From the sequence record NC_052659.1: a DNA stretch of 64,000 nucleotides, one strand, 5' to 3'. This document shows positions 45,921 to 57,975 of the stretch, in pieces. The stretch is from Escherichia phage nieznany. The notes under the pieces were generated by a model that made no database searches, was not told the origin of the DNA, and was given only the letters and a program-made list of their open reading frames with translations. A program made the position numbers and the translations under genes. The first letter of the stretch is position 1. Each line of letters begins with the position of its first letter.

Positions 45921-46121
45921 TTATCGACACAGATAGTTGTAACGATCCGCTTTATCCTCTGCTTCAGCAAAGTCAGCAATCAAGGAAGTTTTGAGTTCTT
46001 CCAACTCTTTCACCCAAGAGTCGTAATCGTTCTGTGTTTCTCCAATAGTTTGGAGAAAACAATCGTCGTAGCCAATAGACATGGCTAACTCGATAATACG
46101 TTCCAGTTTTTCTTCCATCAC
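45921..46121 (-). CDS. hypothetical protein
   Basis: 66 aa ORF. Confidence 0.35.
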   Translation of the reverse strand: MMEEKLERIIELAMSIGYDDCFLQTIGETQNDYDSWVKELEELKTSLIADFAEAEDKADRYNYLCR

Positions 46122-46480
46122 TTCTCTCCTTCTACAGACTTCTGTTTAACATAAAAGTAAGCACCACGAGCAAGATACAAATCATGTTCAATATCGCTCA
46201 CAGGAAAACCATCTGGATTTTTAAAACCGTCTTCTACAGCCAAAATGAGAGATCGTAAACTGATAGCTAACAACTCCATTTGATCTTGTAGTTTTCTATT
46301 TTCTGCATAAAGGTTTTTGCATTTTTGTTCTGCATTTTTCCATTGTTCTAATGCATGATCATAGTTTCGCATAAGGATAGCTTTTTCTTGTTCACGTTTA
46401 AAAGTTTCTTCACAAATGAAACCTGTGCCTAAACCAGTTTCTTCATCTTTGACAAACACTTCAACAAAATCTTTAGACAT
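46118..46480 (-). CDS. hypothetical protein (coiled-coil-like)
   Basis: AGGAG then ATG 46480. Confidence 0.4.
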   Translation of the reverse strand: MSKDFVEVFVKDEETGLGTGFICEETFKREQEKAILMRNYDHALEQWKNAEQKCKNLYAENRKLQDQMELLAISLRSLILAVEDGFKNPDGFPVSDIEHDLYLARGAYFYVKQKSVEGEK

Positions 46481-46481
46481 A

Positions 46482-46745
46482 TTATCTCCTATTTGCTTTT
46501 GGATACTCCCAACCTTCTGGGAGATCTTCTTTACACATCCACTCAAAAGGCCAGCGACAATAACTATGCCACTTTCCATCGAGATATAAGCAATCTTCAT
46601 CCACTGGTCCACAAGGATTGATAACTACAACACACCCTTTTGCTCGCCAATATTGAACTATTTCGGGGTAAAAACAAGAAACGTCGGTCCACTCCCAGAT
46701 ACGTTCATCATTCAAACGATATGCTGCTGGCAATGTTTCTTCCAT
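46482..46745 (-). CDS. hypothetical protein
   Basis: 87 aa ORF. Confidence 0.4.
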   Translation of the reverse strand: MEETLPAAYRLNDERIWEWTDVSCFYPEIVQYWRAKGCVVVINPCGPVDEDCLYLDGKWHSYCRWPFEWMCKEDLPEGWEYPKANRR

Positions 46746-46749
46746 ATTA

Positions 46750-47196
46750 TTAAACCTCTGTCAAAGAGAAACGCCAATCCTTACTACTACCTACACCAAG
46801 GAAGATATAGTCTCCGGTACTAACGGAATATCCCCCAGCGGGAATCCAATCAGGAATCTCTGGCTTATGGCTGTAGCCATAACGCTCGCCACTCGAATCT
46901 GTTGCAATATAATTAACAAATTCAGGAACCTCTAAAGTTTCACCTTGATACTCTACACGCTTGAAGCCATCTTCCACTTCTTTCTCACCTTCTACCAGAG
47001 AAGCAAGAAGTTTGATGTGAGGGCAAGTGAAATCTTGTCCTGGATAACGTGAACGGATATCAGTTAACAATGCGATCACAGCATCAGATAACTCTTTATA
47101 ATCCTCATATCTTACAAATGTGCCTTCTGTCGGATCATCAGGACACAAACGCCAAACATCATTGCAGTTTACAGCATAATGTCGCACTTTAGTCAT
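46750..47196 (-). CDS. hypothetical protein
   Basis: 148 aa ORF. Confidence 0.45.
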   Translation of the reverse strand: MTKVRHYAVNCNDVWRLCPDDPTEGTFVRYEDYKELSDAVIALLTDIRSRYPGQDFTCPHIKLLASLVEGEKEVEDGFKRVEYQGETLEVPEFVNYIATDSSGERYGYSHKPEIPDWIPAGGYSVSTGDYIFLGVGSSKDWRFSLTEV

Positions 47197-47206
47197 AAAT
47201 ACCCCC

Positions 47207-47605
47207 TTATCGTTGCGTACAATCAGCTTCTAGAGTAAGAACATTCGTTATTGTTTTATCATTTTTTAGAAATGCAAACCAAGCTAAAGTGTCCCGATAT
47301 TCTGTGCGTAGCATAACCACTTCAGTAGTGCCAATAAATTGTTGTGAACCGTACATAGCACTACCATCTTTACTTTTTTCTCCTGTGTATTGCAGAATGC
47401 CACTCATCAAAGCACCACCTGAATTTTTAAGGATAAAGGAGTTATCTTTATTAATGACAACAGAAGCCATTTTCTTAGGACCAGAAATCACTTCACCTTT
47501 CAGATTTTTAACAACCACATCTGACACACACTCATAAACTTGAGACGCATTTGCTGTTCCAAGTGATGCAATGAGTAACAAGAAACCTACGATGATCTTT
47601 TTCAT
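47207..47605 (-). CDS. secreted/periplasmic protein (signal peptide)
   Basis: MKKIIVGFLLLIASLGTANA signal. Confidence 0.45.
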   Translation of the reverse strand: MKKIIVGFLLLIASLGTANASQVYECVSDVVVKNLKGEVISGPKKMASVVINKDNSFILKNSGGALMSGILQYTGEKSKDGSAMYGSQQFIGTTEVVMLRTEYRDTLAWFAFLKNDKTITNVLTLEADCTQR

Positions 47606-47701
47606 ATAAACTCTCCTCTTTGTTTACCCGATGCGCCCCCTGTTGGGCAGAAAGGGTTGTACGCAAAATTTTTAGCTCCAATCGTCGGGTGTCCCGACTC
47701 C

Positions 47702-47908
47702 TTACGCTTTTAATGTTTTAACAGAATGACAAGCTTTGCAAACAATAACCGGAACAAGTTCATCTCCATTATCCGCATAAATCACTGTTTTCTTCATTCT
47801 GCCACCGCATGAACAATACTCTGTATGATCCGCAGGAATATTAAATATTCCGTAATCACTTTCATACTGTTTCTTACATATGGACACTGCTTTCGTAAAA
47901 CAAGACAT
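47702..47908 (-). CDS. small zinc-ribbon protein
   Basis: CSCGG...CKACH. Confidence 0.35.
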   Translation of the reverse strand: MSCFTKAVSICKKQYESDYGIFNIPADHTEYCSCGGRMKKTVIYADNGDELVPVIVCKACHSVKTLKA

Positions 47909-47910
47909 GC

Positions 47911-48132
47911 CTACTCCGCAAGAACCTTCACTTCGTCAGAGAAGAATACGTAATCACAACCTTCCCAAACATCTTCTTCAAACCACTCCCATCCCTCGAC
48001 TTTGGACATTTCTTCTATCGTAACAAAGAATGTTGTCATATCCTCACTAACAAGATGTGCTTCAACAACAAAAGGAATCTGAACATTCTCAAAACCAACA
48101 TAACCCAATACATCACAAACTCTAATTTTCAT
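47911..48132 (-). CDS. hypothetical protein
   Basis: 73 aa ORF. Confidence 0.4.
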   Translation of the reverse strand: MKIRVCDVLGYVGFENVQIPFVVEAHLVSEDMTTFFVTIEEMSKVEGWEWFEEDVWEGCDYVFFSDEVKVLAE

Positions 48133-49780
48133 ATTATGCTCCTTTGTAGATTATGTTGGTGCGTTCACACTCTGCCACCAGCAAGCCAAGCTTTGTAAAA
48201 CTTCATTAGACGTAAGCTACTCAACGGAACATTTTTACTCTCTTGCATGATAATCTCCTCTCATCGTTAGCCATCTTTCATGGCAATCATCAATCACCAA
48301 CATCATACGATCAATCTTAGGGAATTACAATCGAATTATCATAGGGGATTCCTATCAATTATCCCCTATATACCGATTATTTTTGACACCCCACTCTTGT
48401 ATAAAAAGTAACCCAAAATATCTACGGGGAGAGATTATTTCGGGACACCCTGTTTCATGGCAATCATGGCAAGAATATCTAATAGAATCAATATCATATG
48501 GCAAAAATCATGGCGCATACGTAAGAAGTGCTTAACGCGAATTTTCGGGCCGTCAGGTCCACGCAGCGACAATTCCCAAATATCATGCGAATGAGAATAA
48601 TTATCATTCGTATTCAATGACTTATGCAAAGCTCATGCCAACGTAGCGACAAGGTGGGCCACTTGATTATAAATCACACAAACACTTATTTATCAATGGT
48701 TTGGCAACCTCATCATATGACGGAACAATGTCAACTAATCCCGCTCATGACAAGCAGACTATTATTTATATGAGAATGATTATTATTTAAACGTTTATTA
48801 ATATAAAAACTAGAATAAATCAAGATTATTCTGATTTTATTTACGTTTAAGAGAAGGTGCTCAACATATCGCGTAGCGATAGTATTCGCCCCCCAAAAGA
48901 TTAGCCTTTATTTTCTTGTATGTTTATACACTATGTGCACACTATGCAACCTGTCGCTATTCGCTCATGTTGCTACGTGCAATTATTCATCTTGCTAATG
49001 ATGATCACACTGAACGATAGTGATAACTCTTGTAATTACCACAATGATTATTGTTATTGCGCTAATGTTATGATCTTGGTAATTACATATAATGCTAATA
49101 ATAAGCCAGCGCAATAAGTGTAAGCGTCATTACGCTTGCAATTATTGCAAGCTACGCAGTAACAAGAAATAACCGTCACCGATGGTTATGATTGTTGGGG
49201 TGTAGTTGGCTTATTATTAGCTCGCTATGTGTCCGGCATAGCGTGCTAATGATGACTCTGTGAATGATTAGTTTTGTAATGATTTCATTCAGGCACTATT
49301 TTGCTAATAGTTATTATTTTAATGGTTTCGTTTGTTATTGTTCGTTAGTTGGTTGTTTTGTCATGTTATCGTTATTTTGCTTAGTATTCATCATGGTTTG
49401 ATTGTTTGTCGTTATCAATCATCTTGCTATTATTCCTTTGATTATGATTAGTTTGCTTATTGTTTTATGTTGTTTGTTGGTTAGTTGTTGCGAACTATTA
49501 TCAACATTATAGTTATGCACTTATATTGCATAGATAAACATGGATAGATGATAATGGTTATCATTGCACCAGAAAGGAGGTAAAAGGGTGTTTTTGATGG
49601 TTTGTTGTTGGTTGTTGATCGATTTTAACCGCTTTAAATGGCTCTCTAACAGCCTGTAACCCTGGGATGTATGGTTATTCGTTTGCTGGTTGATTAGCTC
49701 GATACCACGATTTATTCAGTTTTGTTCTGTGTCGGTTTTTCATAGGCGAAAGCTATCAACATTGTTCGGGCAAAAAGAAA
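48133..49780. other. 1.65 kb noncoding, repeat-rich, strand-compositionally skewed region (G/T-rich tract 49300-49520; repeated GCTAAT(G/A)(A/T)T and CGTAGCGAC motifs)
   Basis: No convincing ORF; low-complexity GT-skew; at least five GCTAATGATGA-like copies (about 48991, 49058, 49092, 49243, 49303) and CGTAGCGAC-like copies in both orientations. Confidence 0.5.
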
Positions 49781-49797
49781 GGGCGCTTGGTGCGCCC
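49781..49797 (-). terminator. terminator hairpin GGGCGCACCAAGCGCCC followed by U-tract on minus strand (same element repeated at 52132)
   Basis: Identical 17-nt hairpin with AAAGAAA/TTTCTTT flanks at 49781 and 52132. Confidence 0.55.
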
Positions 49798-49813
49798 CTT
49801 GTTTTGTTGTCGA

Positions 49814-50047
49814 TTATAACGCTTCATAGATTGAGTAGATCCGGTTTGCCAGGTCATTACGAAAGCGGAATTTTTCATCACGTTTGATCATCAGATCCTT
49901 AAAACCATATTCTTTCAATGCTTCATTAACTTTATGGCGGCAAACGTTCATATTATCCTGCGCGTCACCAATAAACTTATTACTGTGATGCATTGCTTTG
50001 ATCTCTTCCTCTAATACCAGGGCAACTACTGCGATCATCTTTTTCAT
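49814..50047 (-). CDS. hypothetical small protein (PeSL-array gene)
   Basis: ORF preceded by stem-loop and promoter cassette. Confidence 0.4.
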   Translation of the reverse strand: MKKMIAVVALVLEEEIKAMHHSNKFIGDAQDNMNVCRHKVNEALKEYGFKDLMIKRDEKFRFRNDLANRIYSIYEAL

Positions 50048-50101
50048 GCGTCTATCCTCTTCCTATTGCGTTTAATGGGGCGTTACCGCCCCGCTTATGG
50101 T

Positions 50102-50338
50102 TTATTGATTGATGTTATGATGAAAGTTATTTTCTTCAATAGCTTTTAAAATAAAAGCCGTGATCGCTTTCGTGTCTACTTGTTCGAACGTATCAGAATA
50201 AGCCCAATAATAATCATCCCCTACTTTCGGCGGGTAAACCTGGACAAGGAGATCGCCACCTGGTTGATCTATAAGCTCAACATGCAAGCCGGATGATTCA
50301 GCGGTTTTAACGGCGTTTAATACTGTTGCAATACTCAT
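50102..50338 (-). CDS. hypothetical small protein
   Basis: 78 aa ORF. Confidence 0.4.
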   Translation of the reverse strand: MSIATVLNAVKTAESSGLHVELIDQPGGDLLVQVYPPKVGDDYYWAYSDTFEQVDTKAITAFILKAIEENNFHHNINQ

Positions 50339-50382
50339 AATCTTTTCCTTTCTGATGTGGGGCGTTGCCGCCCCTTTGTTGA

Positions 50383-50682
50383 TTAGATCGCTGTTTCCAG
50401 TAGTTCGGCTAACGTCTTACCGCCTGATAGTTGGTCTAACGTTTGCTCTTCTGGCAAGAAATTAGCTGATATTAAACCGACTTGATTCCCTTTGTGCCAG
50501 TTAGCCTGGCGGATGATTCCATCCTTTAAGGATTTTACCGCCATTGTGCAACCGTCGCCAAATGATTCATTTTTATGGTCCATCACTTCATAAGCGCCCA
50601 GTTTGCTGCTGTTAGGCACCATTAACGCGAACACATCACCAACAACCAGTTTTTCTACGGTAACAATAGCGATAGTTTCCAT
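50383..50682 (-). CDS. hypothetical small protein
   Basis: 99 aa ORF. Confidence 0.4.
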   Translation of the reverse strand: METIAIVTVEKLVVGDVFALMVPNSSKLGAYEVMDHKNESFGDGCTMAVKSLKDGIIRQANWHKGNQVGLISANFLPEEQTLDQLSGGKTLAELLETAI

Positions 50683-50758
50683 TTTATTTTCCTCATTATC
50701 GGCGGCACCATTGCCGCCCTACAAGATACATATTACCAGACTAAGCCGACTTGTCAAA

Positions 50759-50869
50759 CTATTTTTTCTTTTTCTTTGCTTCCAACCGTCTAAGGTTACG
50801 GCTGGACTTATTACGCAAGGCGCTCAGATCGTCGTACCCTTTCCATGCTTGCATATCTTTCGGATTCAT
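50759..50869 (-). CDS. small basic peptide (36 aa)
   Basis: AGGGGGTAAC then ATG; manual translation. Confidence 0.25.
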   Translation of the reverse strand: MNPKDMQAWKGYDDLSALRNKSSRNLRRLEAKKKKK

Positions 50870-50878
50870 GTTACCCCC

Positions 50879-51079
50879 TTACTTGTTAGCCGGATCATAT
50901 ACCAGGACCGCGCCACTTGCTTTCACGCTTTCCGCTTCATAGTTGCGCAAATCGTTTTCTGTAAGATTGAGCGCGATCACTTCCTCGATCTCGATACCAG
51001 TGGCAAGGGCGATCTCTTTGATAATGTCTGCTATTTTCATGGTGTGTACCTTATAAGATGATTGATAAGATAGTGACAA
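50879..51079 (-). CDS. hypothetical small protein
   Basis: 66 aa ORF. Confidence 0.4.
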   Translation of the reverse strand: MSLSYQSSYKVHTMKIADIIKEIALATGIEIEEVIALNLTENDLRNYEAESVKASGAVLVYDPANK

Positions 51080-51267
51080 CGAAAGCGATTATACTGATGG
51101 CAAATGTCATCTTTTTACCTTCGGATACTGCCGGATTCTCTACCGTGTATTCTACTGTGTACTTGCTCATCGTGTAATCCTCTCGTTTGCTTTGGGGACT
51201 ATTCCCGCCGCCCTATGAATTAAATATACACTATCTCAAAATGATTGCAAGCCTTTTTCTAAATTAT

Positions 51268-51582
51268 TTATGCAGTAAACAAACCATCATTTACAACGGC
51301 GGCGATGATCTCCCGTGCCATTGATTCAGGGAAAGGGGCGCTATAGTCCTGGCTTGTCTCGTCGGTGTCAGTGATACAATGATAAGCTAACGAGTAAAAG
51401 CCTTTACTAACTGTTTTCAGTGAGACGATGATCACTCGGTCAAGCTTATTGGTGAATGTTGCCGTTAATGTGTTACCCTCCTGCGTCATGTTGGACAAGT
51501 AAGCGAGATCATTAATCAGGGAAAACATTAGCACGGTGTTAGCTTTACTCATGATTGCATCCTCAAAGGGGCGCGGCACCAT
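51268..51582 (-). CDS. hypothetical protein
   Basis: 104 aa ORF. Confidence 0.4.
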   Translation of the reverse strand: MVPRPFEDAIMSKANTVLMFSLINDLAYLSNMTQEGNTLTATFTNKLDRVIIVSLKTVSKGFYSLAYHCITDTDETSQDYSAPFPESMAREIIAAVVNDGLFTA

Positions 51583-51623
51583 TGCCGCCCTACACGATAA
51601 CTATAACACAATGTAAAACAGGA

Positions 51624-51830
51624 TCAACCTTTATTTTTCCACGGTGTCAGCTTGTTAATCATTGGTGATAAATAGCGTTTACCAACGTAAAACAGTACGC
51701 CAACTGATGCAACGGCGGCGACCTCATGCATAGCCGACGGGAAACGGGTATCATAATAAGATCCAATAATAGCGATAGCGGCAACGGCTGCAACGTCGAT
51801 AATGATTTTTTCTTGTTTTGCGGTGATCAT
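51624..51830 (-). CDS. small membrane protein
   Basis: hydrophobic segments VAAVAAIAIIGSY. Confidence 0.4.
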   Translation of the reverse strand: MITAKQEKIIIDVAAVAAIAIIGSYYDTRFPSAMHEVAAVASVGVLFYVGKRYLSPMINKLTPWKNKG

Positions 51831-51915
51831 AATATTTACCTTTTTGTATGGTGGGGAACTATTCCCCGCCTGATGTAATACAGTTTAACAGGTCCGGTTA
51901 TGGTGTCAACCGTTT

Positions 51916-52101
51916 TTAAAGATATTTTATGCTAATAACGTTTTCCGGTTTAACCTTGTTATAATGTGCATCAACATAGATCAAACCATCGTCAGAAAAG
52001 CCCAGGATCACGCCCTGCGCAATAAAACCGTATTCGTCACGGTAACGCACGGCTATTTTTAATGTTGCGCTGTACGCTGTTTTAAGCTCGTTTAAAATCA
52101 T
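51916..52101 (-). CDS. hypothetical small protein
   Basis: 61 aa ORF. Confidence 0.35.
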   Translation of the reverse strand: MILNELKTAYSATLKIAVRYRDEYGFIAQGVILGFSDDGLIYVDAHYNKVKPENVISIKYL

Positions 52102-57321: not shown

Positions 57322-57585
57322 ATGACAACTACATTACACCTTATGCACTCATTGGGCTGGCAAGGCGGCACGGTGCACCAGGTAGCAAGCGCAACGGGCT
57401 TAAAGGTTGAAACAGTTCTCAACCTGGGCGATCATAGGGTGGAAGAAATAGATCATTTTGATACGTTCGCAAATGGTTATCTATGGGCTTGCAGTGGCGG
57501 CGGGGAAAGCAAGATACCACCAGGGGCGCGGGGCGATATGTATTTTTGGTTAGGTGTCCTATCCTGGCAAGAAAACAAAAAATAA
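57322..57585 (+). CDS. hypothetical protein in GC-rich island (plus strand, opposite to neighbours); coding status uncertain
   Basis: 87 aa ORF with AAGGG upstream; local GC content visibly higher than surrounding phage DNA. Confidence 0.3.
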   Translation: MTTTLHLMHSLGWQGGTVHQVASATGLKVETVLNLGDHRVEEIDHFDTFANGYLWACSGGGESKIPPGARGDMYFWLGVLSWQENKK

Positions 57586-57587
57586 TC

Positions 57588-57616
57588 TTGACAAGCCCAG
57601 GGATCGGGCTTATACT
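57588..57616 (+). promoter_or_regulatory. near-consensus sigma70 promoter TTGACA-17-TATACT on plus strand
   Basis: Seen in sequence; spacer AGCCCAGGGATCGGGCT is itself an inverted repeat. Confidence 0.5.
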
Positions 57617-57845
57617 GTTTTACATACAGAAGAGGAAGCGCCACCCCCACGGCGTAAAGGCGGGGCTAACATACCAGGGGGCACTGGTTGGAAGGTTGAT
57701 CGCCGGTAGGCTGGGCGCTATATATTTGTAAAGAAATGTAAAGATAAAATAATCGCTTGCTTTCCTAGCTGGATCTGTTATTCTTATTACATGGCGAGGG
57801 GACACGGGAGCGCGAGACAAACACCGCCCCTGCGCGTCATTCTCT

Positions 57846-57953
57846 AAATGAGATTGATTCTTATTTAATAAGGTAAATGACAATCATTCTCATTTATAAA
57901 CTTAAATGCGAATCATTATCATTTGCATTTCCATATGAGAACTCTTCTCATTT
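57846..57953. repeat. four 21-bp palindromic sites (AAATGAGA-N5-TCTCATTT type) at exact 29-bp periodicity: iteron/operator-like array
   Basis: Sites begin at 57846, 57875, 57904, 57933. Confidence 0.6.
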
Positions 57954-57975
57954 TCACCTGCATAAAAATTTTTGT

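Follow-up and report, generated by a model that had tools for sequence, protein, structure and literature searches.

A gene-free stretch of 1.65 kb in the genome of Escherichia phage nieznany (48133-49780 of the 64,000-nt stretch of NC_052659.1 that was analysed, here called the window) can be identified with high confidence as the place where the genome ends and their direct terminal repeat (DTR) are located. Both physical ends very likely meet in this stretch as the junction of the concatemer; the virion genome would then, with the same likelihood, be linear with short direct terminal repeats, and the region would be its terminal (concatemer-junction) part. An earlier note on this DNA had offered three roles, namely a replication origin, a long structured non-coding RNA, and a packaging or recombination site; the last is the one backed by evidence, because the physical ends and the terminal repeat fall within the region. 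DTRs are already known in this subfamily, and the new details are a candidate cut motif at the repeat boundaries and a folded element upstream of the repeat, of neither of which was a published description found in the literature examined (the phi92 genome paper lying outside its scope).

Identity and gene content of the region

The sequence of the window belongs to a Phapecoctavirus (phAPEC8-like) genome, with 95-97% identity to phAPEC8-like phages. All genes that flank the region have minus-strand sense. Along that strand the last gene is followed by the terminator (49800..49778), a non-coding right arm of about 0.9 kb, the 329-bp DTR (48861..48533), a non-coding left arm of about 0.3 kb with promoter-like sites, and then the first gene (Table 1). 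The same place is annotated as gene-free in phAPEC8, phi92, muut, KKP_3264, phiWec181, phi1_175008 and KP13-26. The earlier claim that there is no credible ORF here stands for 48249-49777, where no ORF is conserved, no frame being preserved across genera; it fails for the left 116 nt, which are ancestrally coding and hold a gene remnant (48248..48165). In other genera, stops or frameshifts interrupt each of the ORFs of 45-65 aa in the region, while the DNA itself is conserved: alignment to relatives, as the earlier note had proposed, gave blocks about 70-85% identical between genera, with invariant motifs. The small ORFs 48435-48629(-), 48920-49117(+), 49264-49401(+), 48624-48773(+), 48355-48504(-) and 48383-48535(+) were rejected, none being kept in other genera. 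ARAGORN found no tRNA or tmRNA. A terminase was absent among the ten window ORFs scanned (the largest and those flanking the region), which proved to be nucleotide-metabolism and small early genes. Pattern scans returned only four loci from IMG/VR and six from metagenomes.

Table 1. Features of the concatemer-junction region of phage nieznany (window positions; ^ marks an inferred cut)
Feature	Position	Strand	Basis or remarks
Intrinsic terminator	49778..49800	-	closes upstream minus-strand gene block
Operator-like palindrome TTGATAG-N7-CTATGA, right-arm copy of 28-nt element	49732..49759		repeat search; conserved across genera
Fur-box-like 7-1-7 palindrome TGATAAnnnTTATCA	49549..49563		one mismatch from TGATAATnATTATCA; conserved in all lineages
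G-poor, A-rich tract	49260..49640	-	composition; predicted unstructured (fold z = -1.2)
Structured core element, 168 nt	49091..49258	-	RNAalifold, pair counts, fold z, covariance model
Hairpin A, 7-bp stem CGCTATG/CATAGCG, loop CCGGACA	49223..49243	-	3 of 7 pairs covary; 100% of cells pair
P1 5' arm GCTAATAATAAGCCA	49207..49221	-	15-bp stem; 3 covarying pairs; 100% paired
Hairpin B ATAACCATC / GACGGTTAT	49169..49189	-	5 of 8 pairs covary
Palindrome C GCTTGCAAT-A-ATTGCAAGC	49134..49152		invariant, perfect; competes with longer imperfect hairpin D
P1 3' arm TGGCTTATTATTAGC	49094..49108	-	pairs with 5' arm
Small hairpin TATCGC-GTA-GCGATA	48867..48881	-	directly upstream of left cut site
Left-end boundary motif GTTG^AGCAC (plus strand GTGCTCAAC)	48857..48865	-	inferred cut between 48862 and 48861
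Direct terminal repeat, 329 bp	48533..48861	-	homology to deposited and annotated termini
Fur-box-like palindrome in DTR	48771..48785		2 mismatches; homologous phi92 site is a perfect TGATAATCATTATCA
Fur-box-like palindrome in DTR, near right end	48592..48606		1 mismatch; conserved across genera
Right-end boundary motif GTTA^AGCAC (plus strand GTGCTTAAC)	48528..48536	-	inferred cut between 48533 and 48532
Repeated motif GGGTGTnnnnAAATAAT, first copy	48434..48450	-	overlaps promoter-like site TTGCCA-18-AATAAT
GGGGTGTCAAAAATAAT, second copy	48376..48392	-	repeat of motif at 48434..48450
Operator-like palindrome TTGATAGG-N4-CCTATGA, left-arm copy	48339..48358		repeat search
Sigma-70-like promoter TTGTAA-17-TATGAT	48302..48330	-	about 55 nt upstream of first gene's start codon
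27-codon remnant of ancestral first gene (phAPEC8 gp18 homologue)	48165..48248	-	GAGGAG ribosome-binding site

The direct terminal repeat and its boundaries

The first 329 nt of the Schickermooser record (MK373788) are identical to its last 329 nt and map to the window DTR; the terminal repeat of this phage was reported as 328 bp by Korf et al. (PMC6563267). An exact start or end on the DTR segment is found in 12 distinct phage records from several laboratories, of which some starts may be copies of reference genomes rather than measurements, and seven or eight records bear the segment at both ends. The annotated 343-bp DTR-L and DTR-R of phi92 align with the window DTR and have homologous boundaries. 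The relatives combine a repeat at both ends with fixed, non-permuted ends, as T7-type DTR termini do. In the window the DTR is present as a single copy with contiguous flanks, as in a concatemer or a circularised assembly, and no second copy occurs within the 64 kb. The ends of nieznany itself are predicted from these relatives, 95-98% identical in the repeat, and we regard the prediction as highly probable. Elsewhere in the literature the DTR of BME3 is given as 342 bp by PhageTerm, and Stephanstirmvirinae genomes are described as ending in direct terminal repeats (PMC12695924).

Both DTR boundaries carry GTTR^AGC on the gene-sense minus strand, and the motif is invariant in about 20 relatives. 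At the left end about 20 loci share TGTTG^AGC without variation, and the Schickermooser record starts at this boundary; at the right end TCGCGTTA^AGCA hardly varies among about 19 loci, and the phi92 and Schickermooser records finish there. Within the window the 9-mer GTGCTYAAC occurs at the two DTR boundaries only. GTTR^AGC is a good candidate for the cleavage motif, and on balance probably is that motif. The small hairpin beside the left cut site includes one of the CGTAGCGA motifs listed in the earlier note; in most lineages a hairpin of differing sequence occupies its position.

A folded element upstream of the repeat

The 168-nt core element lies upstream of the DTR and ends 229 nt from it. 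Hairpin A comes first, followed by a closing stem, P1, around hairpin B and palindrome C (or the alternative hairpin D). RNAalifold and pair counts showed compensatory change at 11 of 38 pairs, with 98.8% of cells paired, a result matched by none of 500 shuffles. Hairpin D is 82% paired, with one covarying pair, and a junction-wide scan for further covarying helices returned A, P1 and B only. The inverted pair CGCTATG/CATAGCG remarked on previously is present, as the stem of hairpin A (49223-49229 and 49237-49243). Folding of the minus strand detected structure in the core element, which as single-stranded DNA has a fold z of -7.0 (-9.2 for the plus strand), and none in the G-poor tract (z = -1.2). 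G-U pairs fill only 1 of 569 cells in the core helices and A-C pairs 2, so that the strand is not assignable from G-U asymmetry; this near-absence of G-U pairs suggests pairing at the DNA level.

With a covariance model, Gotham, LL12 and rV5 were found to share this architecture, which in them lies about 200 nt upstream of an annotated repeat of 459 bp. An inverted repeat shortly upstream of the right-end repeat, as T7-type hairpin-mediated duplication of the repeat would call for, is present here, and at about 200 nt in Gotham and LL12; the T7 inverted-repeat distance is about 190 bp. It is a real possibility, and one we put slightly short of probable, that the folded element works as DNA, either in packaging or in the processing of the DTR.

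The arms and their repeated motifs

The terminator, correctly recognised earlier as bounding the region, was found at 49778-49800; its hairpin also scores on the plus strand (49781-49797), and in nine relatives its stem is conserved and its loop variable. The strand skew noted earlier is likewise real, GC skew reaching +0.36 and AT skew -0.54 at 49200-49500. The description of 49300-49520 as almost purely G and T has to be given up, however, since the composition is T 53%, G 18%, A 19% and C 10% (G+T = 71.5%); what had been seen is the G-poor, A-rich tract viewed from the plus strand. Depletion of G on the minus strand of this tract (7-13% G) is conserved in all lineages. AA/TT helical phasing, indicative of bent DNA, was no higher than in random windows.

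The motif GCTAATRWT was counted, as had been stated, in five copies (48994-49253), with nine in the whole window against 3.0 expected. The hexamer ATTAGC occurs eight times in the right arm (0.93 kb), its density over the whole window being 0.64 per kb. CGTAGCGAC-like motifs, also pointed out before, have four copies in 48562-48977. Several of the motifs listed at that time are genus-specific. A T4-type late promoter, hinted at by TATAAATA at 48763-48770, finds no support: the sequence exists as a single copy in the region and is not enriched, with three copies in the window against 5.4 expected, and no gp33/45/55 homologues are reported in rV5, of a related subfamily (PMC3606486).

In the left arm, ATAATTGATAGG within the operator-like palindrome is almost invariant across genera, and the sigma-70-like promoter is conserved in Phapecoctavirus and muut. 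Residues 1-24 of the gene remnant are identical to the N-terminus of phAPEC8 gp18, and homology to relatives stops at about 48176.

Fur-box-like palindromes occur both within the DTR and in its surroundings. The only sites in the 64 kb with one mismatch to the 7-1-7 consensus TGATAATnATTATCA are 48592-48606 and 49549-49563, and 6 of the 23 sites with at most three mismatches to the Fur consensus lie inside the region; matches at 13/19 or better number 19, against 1.3 +/- 1.5 in shuffles. A motif related to the palindrome at 48592..48606 is present in the DTR region of rV5/LL12. The resemblance is to the consensus, and these palindromes might instead be targets of a phage protein. A Fur-box-like array at 57860-57945, searched against E. 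coli genomes, gave no match, and searching the literature on lytic phages for Fur boxes produced nothing relevant. When the multi-stem DNA structure and the Fur-box-like array are read together, a more speculative proposal arises, which as a whole we consider rather unlikely. In two myovirus subfamilies the structure, about 200 nt upstream of the repeat, would be the cis-acting signal that guides the terminase to cut at GTTR^AGC and brings about duplication of the repeat by hairpin priming, so that the packaging signal would be specified by its fold and not by its sequence; the palindromes would in addition couple early events, or titration of host Fur, to the genome ends.

Alternative roles

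The folded element could equally act in replication priming or be transcribed. An origin or priming site made up of the element and the adjoining AT-rich skewed tract is improbable in our estimate, and the same holds for its more explicit form, in which hairpins in unwound DNA recruit the phage primase-helicase and the A/T-rich tract is the unwinding element, the position of the genome ends here being compatible with this. The tract has about 70% A+T and a strong strand skew, ATTAGC hexamers are repeated in the right arm, on either strand the hairpins form stable structures as single-stranded DNA, and the scarcity of G-U pairs is as expected of DNA; T7, too, has a secondary origin close to its right end. 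Yet DnaA boxes are not enriched and no perfect box occurs in the region, and the skew is local, without a genome-scale switch; in rV5 skew changes track the direction of transcription, according to its authors (PMC3606486). The distance (about 200-230 nt) and orientation of the element relative to the DTR are fixed in two subfamilies; this favours a role in end processing over an origin, for which any position would do. The origin with an unwinding element envisaged in the earlier note consequently finds no positive support.

Slightly less probable again is a structured non-coding RNA, in which the 168-nt element would be transcribed from either strand and lie in the terminal non-coding region by chance. 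Compensatory covariation in three helices and conservation of the architecture across subfamilies would suit an RNA, but the element matches no Rfam family at any threshold (Rfam 15: none at E <= 1 in 46000-52000, none at gathering score window-wide), inspection recognised no flanking conserved promoter or terminator on either strand, and the element lies downstream of a strong terminator. Moreover, both strands fold equally well, and a single G-U cell in 569 is unusual for RNA helices. The long structured RNA first suggested is not supported over the full 1.65 kb, given the unstructured tract and the lack of an Rfam match; the 168-nt sub-element is clearly structured, as DNA or RNA. Finally, decayed or junk DNA, consisting of dead genes and chance repeats without cis function, has the gene remnant and the genus-specific motifs to commend it but is extremely unlikely in the face of blocks conserved between genera, invariant motifs and covarying stems where no frame is preserved.

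Proposed mechanism and comparison with known systems

We infer that the region is a T7-like maturation and packaging region. The cis-elements recognised by the terminase during maturation would be the folded element and the recurring ATTAGC hexamers of the right arm, and sequence-specific cutting of the DNA would take place at the GTTR^AGC motifs that flank the lone DTR copy. That copy would be duplicated in the manner of T7 and T3, through repair or strand-displacement synthesis. Once the DNA has been injected, the host RNA polymerase would begin early transcription at promoters of the left arm or the DTR. The terminator and, as a guess, the G-poor tract may block read-through transcription into the junction.

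The closest parallels are phi92 (Justusliebigvirus) and Schickermooser (Phapecoctavirus), whose homologous sequence has the same boundary motifs, GTTG^AGC and CGCGTTA^AGCAC, matching gene-free flanks, and the same order of terminator, right arm, DTR, left arm and first gene. The phi92 repeat is 343 bp against 329 bp in nieznany, and the first gene is truncated in nieznany, unlike in these two phages.

T7 and T3 resemble nieznany in their short non-permuted DTR and fixed ends, and in a non-coding right-end region with inverted repeats upstream of the repeat, although there is no sequence homology and the nieznany element is multi-stem where theirs is a single palindrome. In T7 and T3 the pac signals of the concatemer junction lie in the right-end region. 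The lone repeat copy per junction needs duplication (PMC4281155; reportedly also Chung, Nardone and Hinkle 1990), and a report cited in PMC4281155 describes a hairpin intermediate containing the terminal repeat in T7 concatemer processing. T7 couples transcription pausing to packaging; phAPEC8-like phages lack a phage RNA polymerase, so that this coupling cannot hold for them in the same form.

The V5-like phages rV5, LL12 and Gotham carry a 459-bp DTR inside a 2.6-kb ORF-free region (PMC3606486, PMC6658697), that of LL12 being described as within a non-coding region (PMC6658697). By the covariance model they share the arrangement of hairpin A, P1, hairpin B and a long hairpin about 200 nt upstream of the repeat; the right part of their DTR has GATATTTGRGAATTGT and AT-rich palindromes common to both groups. 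No significant similarity emerged when the region was compared by blastn with the non-coding gap of rV5, the related element being found by the covariance model alone. The flanking genes of rV5 and LL12 converge on the gap, whereas those of nieznany are co-directional, and GTTR^AGC was not found in rV5. Lambda cos and the pac sites of SPP1 and P22 follow the same logic, in that a recognition region with repeats or bends adjoins a specific cut site, but they have cohesive ends or headful packaging rather than a DTR, there is no homology, and the nieznany region shows no A-tract phasing signal of bent DNA.

Implications

Recognition, cutting and duplication of short terminal repeats are, to our knowledge, understood in some detail for T7 and T3 only. 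The Stephanstirmvirinae and Vequintavirinae are studied for phage therapy. Both are among the most often isolated E. coli phage groups (PMC8594841). Fixing the true genome ends makes correct orientation and annotation possible and allows spurious tiny ORFs in the gap to be avoided. It also carries a warning: where a circularised phage assembly shows a large non-coding region that is skewed and rich in repeats, this is often a collapsed terminus. The cleavage motif proposed here is precise and testable. The folded element is backed by covariation and keeps a set position relative to the repeat, and with it the mechanism of repeat duplication and of recognition for packaging becomes directly testable.

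Location of the genome ends

The gene-poor region at 48133-49780 is matched by 74 phage records, 43 of them covering at least 80% of it, and the closest matches (95-97% identity) belong to Phapecoctavirus (phAPEC8-like, subfamily Stephanstirmvirinae). Records labelled as Campylobacter phages (B15, C3, C7, A150 and others), as Acinetobacter phage ABPW7 or as Pseudomonas phage PsgM04F share 78-97% identity with these coliphage regions; such host labels look doubtful or may stem from contamination. All the genes flanking the region are on the minus strand, which is therefore its natural reading direction and the order of the table below. Among ten window ORFs scanned for family matches, those in the plus-strand block at 1-36 kb include nucleotide-metabolism genes, no family matched the three small ORFs adjoining the region, and CapR and AAA ATPase domains were recognised in two large ORFs near 59-62 kb.

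Phage Schickermooser has been reported to possess a 328-bp terminal repeat (Korf et al., PMC6563267). The first 329 nt of its deposited linear genome are identical to the last 329 nt, and both map to the segment 48861..48533 of the window, on the minus strand. A search with this segment revealed 12 distinct phage records that begin or finish exactly on it (WPEC1, 2, 4 and 6, Mt1B1_P17, BI-EHEC, Schickermooser, three NWU phages, Ro121lw and KKP 3954), and in seven or eight of these phages it is present at both record ends. The RefSeq record of phi92 is annotated with left and right direct terminal repeats (DTRs) of 343 bp, which align with the same segment and have homologous boundaries. Members of the Stephanstirmvirinae are stated to "terminate with direct terminal repeats" (PMC12695924), and a 342-bp DTR was assigned to BME3 by PhageTerm (PMC12210895). 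The window therefore contains a collapsed junction, comprising the right end, a single copy of the repeat and the left end. The genome ends lie inside the region, whose main identity is that of the terminal-repeat region of a DTR phage, as is already known for the subfamily; the packaging site suggested in the earlier note was thus the right choice among its candidate roles.

Features of the junction, in minus-strand order
Feature	Coordinates	Strand	Remarks
Last gene	50047..49814	minus	followed by terminator
Intrinsic terminator	49800..49778	minus	after last gene
Operator-like palindrome, copy 1	49759..49732		TTGATAG-N5/7-CTATSA
G-poor, A-rich tract	49640..49260	minus	predicted unstructured (z = -1.2)
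Fur-box-like palindrome	49563..49549		within G-poor tract; conserved
Structured core	49258..49091	minus	after G-poor tract
Spacer, core to DTR			229 nt; poorly conserved; small hairpin at its end
Small hairpin	48881..48867		before left cut site; hairpin of different sequence here in most lineages
DTR, between left and right cut sites	48861..48533	minus	
GGGTGTnnnnAAATAAT, two copies			left arm (DTR to first gene)
Operator-like palindrome, copy 2	48358..48339		left arm; TTGATAG-N5/7-CTATSA
Sigma-70-like promoter	48330..48302		left arm; TTGTAA-17-TATGAT
First-gene remnant	48248..48165	minus	27-codon ORF; GAGGAG ribosome-binding site; followed by this phage's genes

Sequence motif at the repeat boundaries

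The comparison of boundaries covered 20 loci, which represent at least three genera together with metagenomic relatives. The left boundary, TGTTG/AGC (the slash marks the putative cut, in minus-strand sense), is invariant in all 20, and the right boundary, TCGCGTTA/AGCA, is present in all but one, which differs by a single substitution. It follows from these readings that GTTR/AGC, with the cut in the same place, is common to both. Cuts at these points imply a repeat of 329-332 bp in Phapecoctavirus and one of 343 bp in phi92, in agreement with the annotated values, and the 9-mer GTGCTYAAC occurs twice in the 64-kb window, only at the two boundaries. We infer that GTTR/AGC is the site of terminase cleavage; this conserved motif appears to be undescribed in the accessible literature. 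In Klebsiella-type and some metagenomic relatives (loci L011 of FKP3, L024 of KP13-26, L015, L018 and L023) the spacing of the boundary motifs implies longer repeats, of 398-480 bp, so repeat length varies with lineage; FKP3 has an additional copy of TTGTTGAGCAC about 70 nt upstream.

Coding capacity and composition

The absence of any credible gene, as originally proposed, was borne out over most of the region. The equivalent gap of about 1.5-2.0 kb is gene-free by annotation in seven relatives (phAPEC8, phi92, muut, KKP_3264, phiWec181, phi1_175008 and KP13-26), and the ORFs of 30-60 aa annotated inside it in PsgM04F and FKP3 look like over-prediction. In an alignment of the region that took in 14 phages belonging to several genera, none of its six longest mechanical ORFs, once translated, kept its frame outside the closest relatives, despite conservation of the DNA. 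The truly non-coding part is 48249-49777; at the left edge the gene-free reading fails. The first 24 residues of the remnant there are those of the N-terminus of the 114-aa gp18 of phAPEC8, and homology to relatives ends at about 48176, so the ancestral first gene has been truncated. A different 73-aa ORF without a Pfam match follows (47911-48132), and 47911-48248 is a gene replacement at the extreme left genome end.

The features noted earlier (terminator, GCTAAT repeats, CGTAGCGAC-like motifs, inverted pair) were all found, and are locally enriched. Three of the five GCTAAT motifs are arms of stem P1 and the flank of hairpin A in the folded element described below; ATTAGC hexamers are enriched about 13-fold in the right arm (the non-coding stretch of about 0.9 kb between terminator and DTR), the number of extra copies differing between lineages. 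The description of one tract as almost purely G and T was overstated (G+T is 71.5%, and T 53%): what is conserved across genera is depletion of G on the minus strand (7-13% G), even where the balance of A and T differs. TATAAATA is not enriched, and its reading as a T4 late promoter is unsupported.

The two operator-like palindromes lie near opposite outer edges of the non-coding region and are conserved across genera. Fur-box-like 7-1-7 palindromes cluster within the terminal repeat and near it (48592-48606, 48771-48785, 49549-49563, and also at 49040 and 49088). Throughout the 64 kb only two sites match TGATAATnATTATCA with a single mismatch, both of them located there, and the phi92 repeat contains a perfect match (L008, 79-93). 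The palindromes may serve as sites for host Fur or as operators for a phage protein. A second apparently non-coding stretch, at 57560-57960 on the minus strand, houses two adjacent Fur-box-like sites (57873-57926) and then a G+C-rich segment. Conservation of this stretch extends well outside the subfamily, to 390 phage records; T5-like phages match the Fur-box-like part too, in one case at a feature annotated 'Left Repeat 1'. Among E. coli genomes the stretch had no match. Two near-identical G+C-rich hairpins (GGGGCGTTRCCGCCCC; 50077-50092 and 50359-50374), without a T-run on the gene strand, occupy the short intervals that separate consecutive small genes of the minus strand; similar hairpins in phAPEC8 are annotated as PHIRE 'promoters'.

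A covarying folded element beside the repeat

The structured core was sampled from 20 loci (GenBank phages, four IMG/VR loci and six metagenome loci), giving an alignment of 15 non-redundant sequences, whose RNAalifold-predicted structure comprises hairpin A, closing stem P1 (15 bp, with arms 113 nt apart), hairpin B and an invariant palindrome C. Pairing is kept in 98.8% of 569 cells; 11 of the 38 pairs show changes on both sides, and one-sided variation occurs in none. None of 500 shuffles reached the covariation score of 0.219 (0.070 in shuffles), and the pairing measures collapse once partners are slid by 1-3 columns. Across the whole junction alignment no covarying helices were found beyond hairpin A, P1 and hairpin B. 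As single-stranded DNA, either strand of the core gives a much better fold than shuffled sequence (z = -7.0 and -9.2). Only one of the 569 cells is G-U, which does not assign a strand, and this scarcity, across some six independent lineages, is a weak pointer to a role for pairing in the DNA itself.

When this alignment was turned into a covariance model, the non-coding gaps of the V5-like phages rV5, LL12, APCEc02, Gotham and YP-6, of another subfamily, scored 22-27 bits (rough E 1e-5 to 5e-4); blastn found no match there. The primary sequence differs from that of the core, but the layout is the same: hairpin A (with GGA in its loop), a closing stem (a perfect 17 bp, AT-rich), a C-rich linker, hairpin B and a long hairpin. 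The annotated 459-bp repeat_region of Gotham follows the end of the element by 197 nt, and the PhageTerm repeat of LL12 follows it by about 210 nt; the corresponding spacing in the window is 229 nt, with element and repeat in the same relative orientation. In its right part the V5-like repeat also has GATATTTGRGAATTGT and AT-rich palindromes in common with the window's repeat. LL12's 459-bp repeat is located in a non-coding region (PMC6658697) whose counterpart in rV5 is a stretch of 2.6 kb free of ORFs (PMC3606486). The covarying folded element, whose position is tied to the repeat in both subfamilies, appears to be undescribed in the accessible literature.

Proposed role and alternatives

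In T7, turnaround takes place some 190 bp upstream of the right-hand repeat. If this phage resembles T7 and T3, its replication would yield concatemers in which each junction has a single repeat, and maturation would involve cuts on both sides of the repeat together with its duplication; a hairpin intermediate that includes the repeat is reported for T7 (cited in PMC4281155). On the same analogy we propose that the right arm is a cis-acting maturation and packaging region, in which the folded element and ATTAGC repeats would act as a recognition or processing signal and GTTR/AGC as the cut site, while the left arm and repeat would supply early promoters. These roles are putative, whereas the position of the ends, the motifs, the covariation and the synteny are established. 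In C-type extrusion an AT-rich flank aids formation of the cruciform, and the AT-rich tract could do so here; alternatively it could be a Rho-loading backstop, since read-through RNA would be G-poor.

That the folded element and AT-rich tract are an origin, one of the roles initially entertained, or a priming site seems unlikely: DnaA boxes are not enriched, and the fixed distance to the repeat would go unexplained. That the element is a structured non-coding RNA also seems unlikely, given the lack of an Rfam match, of a conserved flanking promoter or terminator (by inspection) and of more than that single G-U cell; the long RNA raised at the outset is unsupported. Junk DNA is excluded by the pattern of conservation. 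The region is a real feature, and for the maturation role preferred here, the cut motif and the repeat-locked covarying element make the mechanism testable.
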